A stretch of DNA of 64,000 nucleotides from Bacillota bacterium (GTDB lineage: Bacteria; Bacillota; Limnochordia; DTU087; JAAYGB01): positions 589 through 64,588 of the forward strand of contig JAAYGB010000053.1 in NCBI GenBank assembly GCA_012727955.1, written 5' to 3'. Shown piece by piece: positions 4,554 through 55,241 of the stretch. The notes under the pieces were generated by a model, which did no database searches, had not been told where the DNA came from, and saw only the letters and a list, made by a program, of their open reading frames with translations. Position numbers and translations under genes: made by a program. Numbering within the stretch: the first letter of the stretch is position 1; every line of letters starts with the position of its first letter.

Positions 4554-5261
4554 GTGATTCCCTTGACTATTATCGCGGTCCGCTCCCTCATCCTGTATCT
4601 TTATATCATGTTCATCGTCCGCTTCATGGGCAAACGCCAAGTGGGGGAAATGCAGCCCTTTGAGCTGGTAGTGGCGATTCTAATCGCGGACCTAGCGGCG
4701 GTACCGATGGAGTCGCCGGAAATGCCCCTGATTCACGGCCTGATCCCCGTGGCCATCCTGGCCATCATGGAAATGACCATCTCCTACCTGTCCCTGCATC
4801 GGGAGGGCTTCCGTCGTCTGGTGACGGGCAGTCCCTCAATCATCATCATCAACGGCAAGATCTGTGAAGCAGAACTAAGGAAAATGCGGTACAATCTCAA
4901 CGATTTGCTGGAACAGCTGCGGATCAAGGGATTCCACAATATCGAAGATGTCGAGTTTGCGATTTTAGAAACCAGCGGCCAGCTCAGTGTGATTCCCAAG
5001 TCCCAGAAGCGCCCCGTCACCCCAGAGGATCTGCAAATTCCCACGGAGTACGAAGGCTTATCCCATCCCCTCATTCTCGATGGTGTGGTACATAAAGGGA
5101 ATCTGATCCGAACCAACTTGACGGAAGAATGGCTGCAAGAGCAGCTATCGCAACAGGGTTTTTCTAGTCCCAAGGACATCTTCTTTGCCAGTCTCAATTC
5201 CCAGGGACAGCTATTCCTACAGCCCCGAGATGCCGCTACCTCAGGGAGGGAGGCAAACTGA
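4554..5261 (+). CDS. DUF421 (YetF/YrbG-like) membrane protein
   Basis: 235 aa with N-terminal transmembrane segments and a DUF421-like C-terminal domain. Confidence 0.75.
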   Translation: MIPLTIIAVRSLILYLYIMFIVRFMGKRQVGEMQPFELVVAILIADLAAVPMESPEMPLIHGLIPVAILAIMEMTISYLSLHREGFRRLVTGSPSIIIINGKICEAELRKMRYNLNDLLEQLRIKGFHNIEDVEFAILETSGQLSVIPKSQKRPVTPEDLQIPTEYEGLSHPLILDGVVHKGNLIRTNLTEEWLQEQLSQQGFSSPKDIFFASLNSQGQLFLQPRDAATSGREAN

Positions 5262-50781: not shown

Positions 50782-51483
50782 TTACTTAATGAAGTTGTCG
50801 GGATTCATCCCGGCTTGCTGCAGAGCGTGCTTCACGGCAGCAGCGTAGGCTTCACAGCTGTGGGTAGCACCGGCAATAACGTCAACATTTAGCTTCTGTT
50901 CTGCCACGATTTTAGCTGGAATTTCCTTATAGGCTTGGACTGCCTGGGGCCATGGATAGCCAGTTGCCGGCTTATTGGCCTCCCGGGTCTCATTGGCACC
51001 GGTGTTCTGGGCAGGAACCAACTGAACATCGACGATGCGGTTGGCTTCCTTGTCAACGACAACCCTGGCCACGGTGTGACCGTGAGCATAGTTACGGCTT
51101 ACACCGTAGAAAACGTTACCGGTGTAACTGTCGGAAGCAATGGCCAAGGCCAGAGCGGTAGCTTTGTTGTAATCATTGACGCTACCGGTAGCACCGGTGA
51201 TCAGGTCCATGGCAGGGCCCTGCTTAGCGATAATTTCGCTGGGGAACTTCGCAAAGGCATCGACACCTAGCTGATAGCTATAGGTTCCCTCGGGCTTGAC
51301 CGGGTTTAGAATCTCAGCGCCGACGATGCGATCATTCTTAATCTTGATATCGACAATAATGTCGCCTCTGGCATTACCGATAAAACCAATAAAGGAACCA
51401 TCGCGATACTTCTCACCGGCGAAGGCAACGCTGGTAGCAGCCAGCAGCATGACTACCAAGGCGATAGAAATAACTTTCTTCAC
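50782..51483 (-). CDS. secreted protein with two FMN-binding (FMN_bind) domains
   Basis: Signal peptide MKKVISIALVVMLLAATSVAFA. Two copies of the FMN_bind signature (ITGATGSVNDY and IAGATHSCEAY). GTG start after an AGGAAGGGGAG RBS. Confidence 0.75.
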   Translation of the reverse strand: MKKVISIALVVMLLAATSVAFAGEKYRDGSFIGFIGNARGDIIVDIKIKNDRIVGAEILNPVKPEGTYSYQLGVDAFAKFPSEIIAKQGPAMDLITGATGSVNDYNKATALALAIASDSYTGNVFYGVSRNYAHGHTVARVVVDKEANRIVDVQLVPAQNTGANETREANKPATGYPWPQAVQAYKEIPAKIVAEQKLNVDVIAGATHSCEAYAAAVKHALQQAGMNPDNFIK

Positions 51484-52330
51484 TAGAAACTCCCCTTCCT
51501 GATGTAAAAAAGTTAGTAAGACACGATACTACCCGGCAGCATTCCACCCTCTTCCCATCCCTTGACGCCCAGTGATGAATACCCCCGACAGGAGTATTTA
51601 CTAGGGGTAGCAACAAACTTCACAAACTGAGGCGAAGTTTGCCTACCACAAACACCTAGTCTAAACATTTAGTTCAAACACACCTAGATAATACCACAGG
51701 ATCTACTAGGTGTACATAGTCATTTTGTTCCAAGGATAAATGGAGTAGGAGGGGGTGGCTAACCCCAGTCCTCTCACACCACCGCTCATGCAGATCTCGC
51801 AAGCGGCGGTTCGCCTTCAGTAAACCTAACTTATGTCTTGCACAGTCTATCCTCGGTCACTAAGCGTTCTTATCCTTCGTCCTCGGTTTCCAACCTACTT
51901 TCAGATAAGCAACCTCGCCCGAGCAACTGCCGCCATCGAGTCCTTTCCTCCGCTGGCTTTCACCAGTTTCTACGGTACTACGACTCGAACTGACTTCTGC
52001 ATGTTCAGCTCCACCTTTCATATGGAGGTTACTAAGAGGCGAATATATCATCATCGCCTTGCAAAGCGTCCATACTGACCTTCCCCGTTAAGGCGTATAG
52101 TCTTTCGCTCCACCTATCTGCCACATTTGCACAGCATACCTTCGGATAGTTATCGGCTTCAGTTTGTTTGGCAACCTTACCCGGCATGCTGATTTCTGTC
52201 CGTTAGACCAGAGCTTTGCCTACGACTTCATGCAGATTCCTCCTCGCGAAGGACACCCTTGCCTTCAGCTATACACTTACCACTATCAGAACGTGTTCGA
52301 GACTTTCACCCGTTAGACTATACCCATCCG
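51484..52330 (-). other. ORF-free, lower-GC, strand-skewed region: candidate large structured ncRNA or remnant DNA (unclassified)
   Basis: No ORF of 90 codons or more in any frame across ~850 nt. The plus strand is pyrimidine-rich, so a minus-strand transcript would be purine-rich. GC is visibly below the window average. Repeated CACCTAG/CTAGGTG motifs sit at the 51650-51715 end. Confidence 0.3.
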
Positions 52331-52335
52331 GGGCA

Positions 52336-52380
52336 AACCAAAAATACCGGCAACCTGTCTAAAGGCAGGTCGCCGGTATC
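52336..52380 (-). terminator. rho-independent terminator of the metNIQ operon
   Basis: ATACCGGCAACCTGTC-taaag-GCAGGTCGCCGGTAT hairpin, followed on the minus strand by ATTTTTGGTTTG. Confidence 0.65.
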
Positions 52381-52409
52381 CCTAAAAAGTTATCCCATGC
52401 TGTTTTGTT

Positions 52410-53201
52410 TTAAAAAGCGGGAACTACAGCGCCGTCATAGTTGTTGAGAATGAACTCGCGCACAGCATCGCTTTGCAGTACTTCAGCCAGAACCCGAATT
52501 CCCTCACGGTCATCGCCCTGACGGACGGCAATTACGTTCACGTAGGGAGATTGACTATCTTCGATGAAGAGAGCATCCTCTGTGGGAACCAAATTAGCCT
52601 CTAGGGCGAAGTTGGTGTTGATAATGGCCAAGGCCACATCATCCAGGGACCGAGGAAGCTGAGGAGCCTCCAGTTCGACAAACCGCAACCGCAGGGGATT
52701 GTCGACAATATCAAAGACGGTAGCGGTAATTCCAGCTGCCGGATCCAGCTTGATCAGCCCTTTACTCTGCAACAGCAGCAGGGCTCGCCCGCCGTTGACC
52801 GCGTCGTTGGGAATGGCAATGGTGCTTCCGGATTTTAGATCATCAATGCTCTGCAGCTGCTTGGTATAGGCGCCCATGGGCTCAATATGAATCTTGGCGT
52901 TGTAAGTAATATTCAATCGGTGGCTAGCAGCAAAATCCTCAAGATAGGGAATGTGTTGGAAGAAGTTAGCATCCAGATCCCCATCATTAAGGGCTAGGTT
53001 AGGCTGCACATAGTCGGTAAACTCCACGACCTCCAGCTCATAGCCCCGCTCAGCCATCGCAGGTTTGATGAACTCCAGGATCTCGGCATGGGGTACCGGA
53101 GTGGCTCCCACCCTAACCCTTTCTGCGGCTGAGACTGCACCAATGGCAACTACAAAGACTAATGCGACCAAACTGAGAACTGTCAACACTCTAGTTTTCA
53201 C
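52410..53201 (-). CDS. metQ: methionine ABC transporter substrate-binding lipoprotein
   Basis: Signal peptide plus the NlpA/MetQ family pattern. Completes the metN-metI-metQ order. Confidence 0.85.
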   Translation of the reverse strand: MKTRVLTVLSLVALVFVVAIGAVSAAERVRVGATPVPHAEILEFIKPAMAERGYELEVVEFTDYVQPNLALNDGDLDANFFQHIPYLEDFAASHRLNITYNAKIHIEPMGAYTKQLQSIDDLKSGSTIAIPNDAVNGGRALLLLQSKGLIKLDPAAGITATVFDIVDNPLRLRFVELEAPQLPRSLDDVALAIINTNFALEANLVPTEDALFIEDSQSPYVNVIAVRQGDDREGIRVLAEVLQSDAVREFILNNYDGAVVPAF

Positions 53202-54993: not shown

Positions 54994-55032
54994 ATCAAGA
55001 ACGCACCACACAAAGCAGTACTATACCTTAAC

Positions 55033-55140
55033 CTCATCTCTCTGGGTAACCAGTCCTCCCAGCAGGAATTGGCACCTTGCGCTGCTTCAGCGCCGGTTGC
55101 CGGGTTTCATCGGGCCAGTCCCTCCACCTCTCTTGATGAG
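55033..55140 (-). ncRNA. SAM-I (S-box) riboswitch
   Basis: The minus strand reads CTCATCAAGAGAGGTGGAGGGACTGGCCCGATGAAACCCGGCAACC...GCAAGGTGCCAATTCCTGC...CAGAGAGATGAG, a near-consensus S-box with P1 closing CTCATC/GATGAG. Confidence 0.85.
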
Positions 55141-55241
55141 CTCTGCACTATATGTAGGCAGTGATTCCCAAATCAGGAATTTACCTTTGTAAGCACTAGT
55201 ATATACATATTCATAGGACCCGTCAACAGAAATTAATCGGA

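Follow-up and report, generated by a model that had tools for sequence, protein, structure and literature searches.

In a 64-kb stretch of DNA from a Bacillota bacterium of the class Limnochordia (contig JAAYGB010000053.1, referred to in its full length as the window), the intergenic region between metQ and a gene with an FMN_bind domain contains a group II intron. The intron occupies positions 51740-52338 of the minus strand, belongs to class IIC and carries no open reading frame (ORF). A preliminary description of the same DNA, made from the sequence alone, had presented the approximately 850 nt from 51484 to 52330 as one possible large structured RNA. The region consists of two objects: the intron, which reaches 8 nt beyond 52330, and 256 nt of non-intron DNA at 51484-51739. 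The idea of a single RNA therefore holds for the first part and fails for the second, which lies outside the RNA element. Considered as a whole, the element is very probably a decayed relic, namely an ORF-less group IIC intron behind the metQ terminator, which represents a known kind of element and no new RNA class. Group II introns of class IIC are already known, as is their rarer ORF-less form.

The cmscan search against Rfam that the preliminary description had proposed as a check was run on the window. Two matches exceeded the gathering score, a riboswitch for S-adenosylmethionine (SAM) and the group II intron model RF02001 (group-II-D1D4-3), which scored 85.2 bits against a gathering score of 32 (E 1e-15) at 52092-52253 of the minus strand. 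At a relaxed threshold, RF01998 (group-II-D1D4-1) gave 30.2 bits at 51940-52031, which is below its cutoff of 35, and on two sister copies of the intron, L022 and L062, it gave 36.4 and 39.5 bits, over the cutoff. Both models (Rfam clan CL00102) describe parts of an intron only. The prediction of a large structured RNA on the minus strand was thus borne out, since it is there that group II intron models match, and the suggested affiliation with an OLE/ROOL/GOLLD-like or novel class gave way to these models. No match to OLE, ROOL, GOLLD, RNase P or similar RNAs was obtained in the window at the gathering threshold or in 51300-52500 at E ≤ 10. RF00029, the generic model of domains V and VI, did not match the window copy, L022, L062 or the copies of Bacillus massiliglaciei (L008); on classic IIC introns, it gave 43-46 bits (gathering score 40) with two and missed the third.

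The comparative data lead to the same identification. The consensus fold of five family sequences (RNAalifold, alignment A5) contains domains I-VI in order, and 22 of its 177 pairs show compensatory changes. For domains V and VI, the window copy was aligned with six sequences of the ORF-less family and of full-length Bacillaceae introns. In this alignment, 98.9% of the cells pair, and the value falls to 38-61% in a control in which the 3' partners were slid by 1-3 columns. All 13 pairs of domain V form in 7/7 sequences, and four of them are compensatory, with both sides changed. This domain had escaped inspection by eye in the preliminary description; it lies at 51778-51810, with domain VI at 51743-51775. 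The minimum free energy (MFE) of the whole intron is ordinary in comparison with shuffled sequences (z -1.1), and the hairpins of domains V and VI are present in the MFE fold. Single-sequence stability is therefore no evidence here, and the evidence consists of the covariance models and the comparative data. The parts of the intron, including its exon-binding sites (EBS) and the intron-binding sites (IBS) in the flanking DNA, are as follows.

51740..52338, minus strand: ORF-less group IIC intron of 599 nt, 5' GUUUG and 3' ...CUCCAU (RF02001 match; limits of homology; absent from syntenic relatives)
52339..52342, minus strand: IBS1, UUUG, the last 4 nt of the 5' exon, complementary to EBS1 CAAA and co-varying with it in homologous copies
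52083..52333, minus strand: domain I, with the epsilon' bulge, EBS1 and the damaged internal loop of subdomain ID (consensus fold, column mapping, RF02001 match)
52226..52238, minus strand: mutated epsilon' bulge motif, AAUCUGCAUGAAG, in place of CUGAAGGAAG found in all other family copies and in the Rfam consensus
52189..52190, minus strand: junction of a 13-nt deletion in subdomain ID, where CACAUAUAAGGCA of L022 and L062 is missing (alignments A1, A2 and A5)
52167..52170, minus strand: EBS1, CAAA, in the terminal loop of subdomain ID, co-varying with IBS1 across four insertion sites
51996..52078, minus strand: domain II (consensus fold with compensatory pairs, column mapping)
51936..51988, minus strand: domain III (RF01998 match at 51940-52031, 30.2 bits; consensus fold)
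51814..51935, minus strand: domain IV, about 120 nt without an ORF, 39 nt shorter than in the 651-nt copies (alignment A5)
51778..51810, minus strand: domain V, CCGCCGCU-UGCG-AGAUC-UGCA-UG-AGCGGUGG, with the CGC triad, a 2-nt bulge UG and a 4-bp distal stem
51743..51775, minus strand: domain VI, GAG-AGGA...UCCU-A-CUC-CAU, whose bulged A at 51746 is the branch point and lies 7 nt before the 3' splice site
51739..51739, minus strand: IBS3, U, the first base of the 3' exon (T at the start of the 3' exon in the window and at 10 other loci)

Class IIC introns are defined by small size, the CGC triad, a short distal stem of domain V, an EBS1-IBS1 pairing of 3-4 bp and the lack of EBS2 (Toor et al., PMC1702495). 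In their domain V, CGC stands in place of AGC and the distal stem is 2 bp shorter, and the same work defined an 11-nt epsilon' bulge motif with a conserved AGGAA. The window intron belongs to this class, as shown by the CGC triad, the short EBS1-IBS1 pairing, the upstream hairpin followed by a U-run and the 3' exons that start with T. Its 5' end is GUUUGCCCCGGAUGGG at 52338, 5 nt past the metQ hairpin, and its 3' end is ...CUCCAU at 51740, which finishes in AY (CAU) as expected for group II introns, whose bulged branch-point A stands 7-8 nt from the 3' end. Homology among the copies opens exactly at GUU(U/C)GCCC and closes exactly at CUACUC(C/G)AU. The 5' boundary was set by this end of homology and by the covariation of EBS1 with IBS1, which is seen at four sites: the IBS1/EBS1 sequences are UUUG/CAAA in the window, UUUA/UAAA in L022, UCUU/AAGA in L062 and (C)CUU/AAGA in L064. 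A T directly follows the intron at 11/11 loci with a visible 3' end, the window included, which represent approximately nine distinct sites. A putative EBS3 adenosine is retained in the GCAAAUG of the window copy by homology with A223 of the Oceanobacillus intron, the EBS3 reference position (PMC3669008), and the facing strand of the loop is deleted.

The position of the intron directly behind a terminator is shared by its relatives. The metQ terminator hairpin with its U-run has an MFE of -29.5 kcal/mol (z -6.6 against shuffles); it was missed by a simple terminator scanner, and folding was used in its place. Strong hairpins with a U-run, different at each site, stand just upstream of the window, L022, L062 and L064 copies when folded (z -5 to -6.7), and inspection of the sequence reveals the same arrangement upstream of L045 and L059. 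L062 (737-1387) and L064 (654-4, minus strand) are 651 nt long, are 100% identical and stand behind different terminators. Identical 3' ends of the L022 type were found at three distinct sites (with L063 and L067) and those of the L062 type at five, L068, L070, L066 and L069 among them. Since identical copies occur at different terminators, the ORF-less family has moved recently.

The intron is lacking in relatives with the same arrangement of genes. Three of them keep the gene order metN-metI-metQ-FMN_bind-PNP_UDP-VanZ-DegS and have MetQ proteins that share 77%, 72% and 67% identity with that of the window. Their metQ-FMN_bind spacers measure 284, 359 and 289 nt, contain their own terminators and have no similarity to the intron. 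The corresponding spacer of the window is 926 nt long, or 327 nt once the 599-nt intron is subtracted. Empty sites were thus looked for and three were found, and these short, intron-free spacers in syntenic relatives show that the element is an insertion in the window lineage. The MetQ protein puts the window among uncultured Bacillota: the cluster to which it belongs bears the label 'MAG: Firmicutes bacterium', and among homologues at 61-67% identity, many of the named ones come from Limnochordales or Limnochorda. Within the window lineage, the intron is present in 5/5 strain-level contigs that encode an identical MetQ, as far as these contigs extend. In two of the strain variants, L001 (~5110-5190) and L002 (~2060-2150), clustered differences from the window in domains II and IV match L022-type copies, and in domain II, the patch of L001 has exactly the L022 sequence. 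Such patches may have been donated through gene conversion by further copies of the intron in the same genome, or they may stem from a chimeric metagenome assembly.

The intron accounts for the properties that first drew attention to the region. The longest ORF that overlaps 51484-52330 encodes 81 aa, and the longest stop-free run in any frame is 82 codons, in agreement with the earlier statement that no ORF of 90 codons or more is present. The GC content is 0.484 against 0.544 ± 0.028 across the window, which is within the lowest 1.2% for windows of 847 nt in the 64-kb sequence. The GC skew of the plus strand is -0.244 against -0.091 ± 0.063 (lowest 0.2%), and the pyrimidine content of this strand reaches 0.569 (top 2.7%), which corresponds to 57% purine in a minus-strand transcript. 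The lower GC content and the strand skew noted previously are therefore a real compositional anomaly and no chance fluctuation; this G+A-rich, stop-rich, lower-GC make-up is the plain composition of a group II ribozyme. The bounds that had been assigned to the region were likewise confirmed, with the metQ hairpin and U-run (-29.5 kcal/mol) on one side and the FMN_bind start at 51483 on the other. The further suggestion of decayed foreign DNA came near the truth, as the intron is a relic of a mobile element; what it implied about a protein gene was not found. The remnant of a frameshifted protein gene, named at the outset as a finding that would speak against a structured RNA, did not appear in tblastn searches with IIC proteins or in Pfam searches with nine short ORFs.

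The reading as a frameshifted pseudogene or other non-intron foreign DNA, to which the GC content below that of the flanks and the many short ORFs might point, can be dismissed as having a negligible likelihood, since the nine short ORFs gave no Pfam match at E ≤ 1 other than one at chance level, tblastn of IIC reverse transcriptases gave noise only and ribozyme domains account for the full length. The intron itself is ORF-less. Its domain IV measures ~120 nt, compared with ~170 nt in the 651-nt copies and ~1.4 kb in full-length relatives, where it contains a reverse transcriptase (RT) gene of the ltrA type, 1.3-1.4 kb long. No remnant of an intron-encoded protein was recognized in domain IV, where tblastn of three IIC intron-encoded proteins returned noise only, as it did against all family loci, and no RT-like ORF lies in the 64-kb window or in any of these loci.

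Several lesions were found in the window copy. The 13-nt deletion (CACAUAUAAGGCA) comprises the 5' strand of the conserved internal loop of subdomain ID and its basal helix, occurs in the window lineage only and affects nine positions that are invariant in seven other IIC introns. RF02001 is matched over its full length with 12 model positions missing and several non-canonical pairs, and the alignment has gaps at model positions 63-80. The loop of domain V has acquired one extra A (AGAUC), which only the window lineage has, and one G-C pair of this domain has become G-U through a C>U change. Domain VI contains one G>U change, and position -3 (51742) is C, compared with G in 10/10 other copies examined. 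G occupies this position in the vast majority of IIC introns, and the base affects branching (PMC4748821). The lesions in domain V, domain VI and position -3 occur in no other copy. RF02001 gives 85 bits for the window copy and 148-152 bits for L022 and L062. In columns that are invariant in the seven other IIC introns, 8 substitutions are found in the window copy alone and 9 bases are deleted from it, compared with 2-3 unique substitutions in its two sisters, a crude comparison in which long-branch sequences also score high. As far as sequence can tell, these changes point to relaxed constraint on the window copy, which is most likely an inactive relic that no longer splices efficiently and has no host function.

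Several observations weigh against a decayed class IIC intron. Its 5' end is GUUUG (GUUCG in the family) where the canonical sequence is GUGYG, so that it deviates by a U at position 3 and agrees at G1, U2, Y4 and G5. The epsilon' bulge reads CUGCAUGAAG, with AUGAA for the conserved AGGAA, and does not have the form that is typical of the class; this is taken for damage in the window copy and not for evidence against class IIC ancestry. Among the intact parts are the catalytic triad, the bulge of domain V, the branch-point A, EBS1/IBS1 and the putative EBS3 adenosine, and the copy may have retained residual 5' hydrolysis or protein-assisted splicing. In addition, its lesions are common to the strain variants L001-L003, which fits an old single insertion and a tolerated functional variant equally well.

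A rival reading is that of a working non-autonomous intron, which would be transcribed by read-through, spliced by a maturase encoded elsewhere and still able to retrotranspose to terminators. The core elements for catalysis are kept, the sister copies were recently mobile and the patches in L001 and L002 that are identical to L022-type copies possibly reflect gene conversion within one genome. Nevertheless, 13 nt of a universally conserved internal loop are gone, AGGAA is mutated and the domain V loop and position -3 are changed, all of these in the window lineage only. The RF02001 score is ~65 bits below that of the sister copies, and scans of genomes and metagenomes (with a genome collection that did not include the source genome) returned no identical second copy of the window type. 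A working intron is thus unlikely. Co-option by the host as an insulator, as a structured 3' untranslated region that aids metQ termination or as an element that helps to regulate the FMN_bind gene has a very slim chance of being correct. The element does have a terminator on one side and the promoter of the next gene on the other, and all five strain-level contigs carry it as a fixed feature, but relatives function without it, the promoter-like site and the repeats of the downstream gene lie outside it and its conserved positions are decaying instead of being maintained. A novel or rare large non-coding RNA with a cellular function, similar to OLE, ROOL or GOLLD, would explain a long, ORF-free, structured element with a purine-rich transcribed strand. 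This is hardly credible given that only group II intron models match, both in the whole window and in the region at E ≤ 10, that mobile copies at unrelated loci can be aligned with the element over its full length and that syntenic relatives lack it.

The decayed intron behind the metQ terminator can be placed in a plausible sequence of events. The ribozyme would have reverse-spliced into DNA just downstream of the metQ terminator hairpin, with the target recognized in the manner of class IIC, that is, by a stem-loop in place of IBS2, a 4-bp EBS1-IBS1 pairing (CAAA:UUUG) and a putative EBS3-IBS3 pairing (A:U). Reverse transcription would have come next, with the RT/maturase provided in trans from a related full-length intron, since the window intron lacks an intron-encoded protein and its insertion would have needed this activity from elsewhere. 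For ORF-less introns of bacteria in general, mobilisation in trans is a proposal (PMC4424553), and for a Thermosynechococcus family it has been reported (PMC8643678). At an intergenic site behind a terminator, the intron would be transcribed rarely and only by read-through. The host would not need splicing at such a site, which may be why the copy decayed. Splicing, if any, would join the exons as ...GGUAUUUUUG|UUAUCCUUGG.

The relatives were collected in two ways. A degenerate pattern of the 5' part of the intron, applied to one genome per species, gave 56 loci, mostly full-length class IIC introns of Bacillaceae, and a domain V-VI pattern applied to metagenomes of the Joint Genome Institute gave nine further loci; viral contigs scanned with the 5' intron pattern gave 0 matches. 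The best intact homologue is L022 (JAEWIF010000033.1), a 651-nt ORF-less intron in a metagenome-assembled genome (MAG), with 81% identity to the window copy by BLAST and 89% over aligned columns. This MAG is labelled 'Proteobacteria bacterium', and all other relatives come from Bacillota; the label may be due to mis-binning or horizontal transfer. Some loci are of interest in their own right. In L059 (144-256), from a Limnochordia MAG, a truncated intron of the family type consists of the first ~113 nt (GUUCACCC...) behind a hairpin and then passes into unrelated sequence. In L027 (2623-2891), a IIC intron follows the terminator of a tRNA gene, and the contig ends within the intron. Bacillus massiliglaciei Marseille-P2600T (L008, L011, L014, L025 and others) contains dozens of class IIC intron copies, and at many of its loci a second 5' end lies 1885 nt from the first, which points to full-length copies that are nested or stand in tandem. 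In Anoxybacteroides tepidamans, a HEARO RNA (L043, 5558-5767, minus strand; RF02033, 145 bits) lies less than 2 kb from the 5' end of a IIC intron.

The window copy has much in common with the well-known class IIC introns B.h.I1 of Bacillus halodurans, O.i.I1 of Oceanobacillus iheyensis and GsI-IIC. All are small, with a CGC triad and a short distal stem of domain V; they have an EBS1-IBS1 pairing of 3-4 bp, no EBS2 and an A:U EBS3-IBS3 pair (putative in the window copy); the basal helix of domain VI has 3 bp with a bulged A; and they are inserted right after a terminator hairpin. Domains I-III of the window copy are 62-65% identical to those of Bacillaceae IIC copies. Unlike these three introns, the window copy has no RT, and its domain IV measures ~120 nt instead of ~1.4 kb. 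The 5' end is GUUUG/GUUCG where theirs is GUGYG, and only the window copy shows the damage in AGGAA, subdomain ID and domains V and VI. The nearest full-length relative found is an intron with ltrA on a plasmid of Clostridium felsineum, whose domain I is 79% identical to that of the L022 copy.

Ribozyme-only introns are known from other systems as well. The class IIB1 family of Thermosynechococcus elongatus and the ORF-less entries of the Zimmerly database resemble the L022/L062 type in that they lack a protein, occur as near-identical copies at many sites and presumably use an RT in trans (PMC4424553, PMC8643678). The Thermosynechococcus introns belong to class IIB1/CL and home to specific sequences, whereas the present family belongs to class IIC and targets terminators. 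An unannotated ORF-less IIC intron of ~640 nt was found on the 12.5-kb plasmid pDSM4216 of Bacillus smithii (NZ_CP012025.1, 320-959; L076, 2501-3140), right after a hairpin with a T-run. Over its whole length, this intron can be aligned with the family at 62% identity, but it differs in its GUGCG 5' end, belongs to another lineage and is apparently intact where the window copy is damaged.

The genes and signals around the intron are listed here from the methionine operon to the downstream gene.

55031-55142, minus strand: SAM-I riboswitch (RF00162, 92.5 bits), upstream of metN-metI-metQ, the operon whose terminator was targeted by the intron
52410-53201, minus strand: metQ/NlpA, last gene of the metNIQ operon controlled by the SAM riboswitch, upstream of the region
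52344..52379, minus strand: intrinsic terminator hairpin of metQ, AUACCGGCGACCUGCC-UUUA-GACAGGUUGCCGGUAU followed by UUUUG, 31 nt past the metQ stop codon
51484..51739, minus strand: promoter and ~200-nt leader of the FMN_bind gene, outside the intron
51716..51688, minus strand: promoter-like site, TGTACA-17-TATTAT with a TG extension, the only such site upstream of the FMN_bind gene
51652-51713: three ACACCTAG repeats (two direct, one inverted) within 62 nt, overlapping the promoter-like site
50782-51483, minus strand: gene of 233 aa with an FMN_bind domain and a GTG start at 51483, downstream of the region

The 256-nt stretch at 51484-51739 is taken to be an ordinary promoter with the leader of the FMN_bind gene. 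The ACACCTAG sequence occurs 5 times in the whole window, against 1.15 occurrences expected, and its three repeats are probably a transcription-factor operator. A purine-rich GGAAGGGGAG stands directly before the GTG start of the gene. No riboswitch or leader family was matched by Rfam at E ≤ 10 in this stretch or in the spacer of one relative, and when the stretch was aligned with the spacers of three relatives, conservation was poor and the sequences were too divergent to support a conserved structure.

For this genome, the analysis explains an odd 0.6-kb intergenic insert as a relic of a mobile element and removes a candidate for a new large RNA. What is mildly new concerns the family level only: the lineage consists of ribozymes without a protein, targets terminators, starts with GUUYG, is active in uncultured Bacillota, where it has evidently spread to many terminators, and escapes RF00029. 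We lean slightly towards the view that the copies represent an undescribed non-autonomous class IIC family of uncultured Bacillota, both Limnochordia-like and other. Its members would measure ~650 nt, start with GUUCG and share a conserved ORF-free domain IV of ~170 nt; the family would be currently active behind many terminators, retargeted by single-base changes in EBS1 and dependent on an RT in trans, with the window copy as a dead member. The number of such elements is probably underestimated by surveys that are keyed on RT genes or on RF00029. For structural or mobility work, the intact 651-nt copies L022 and L062 could be used as compact natural IIC ribozymes. If this view is true, the family would be the group IIC equivalent of a miniature inverted-repeat transposable element (MITE), one that surveys based on RT genes or RF00029 would miss.

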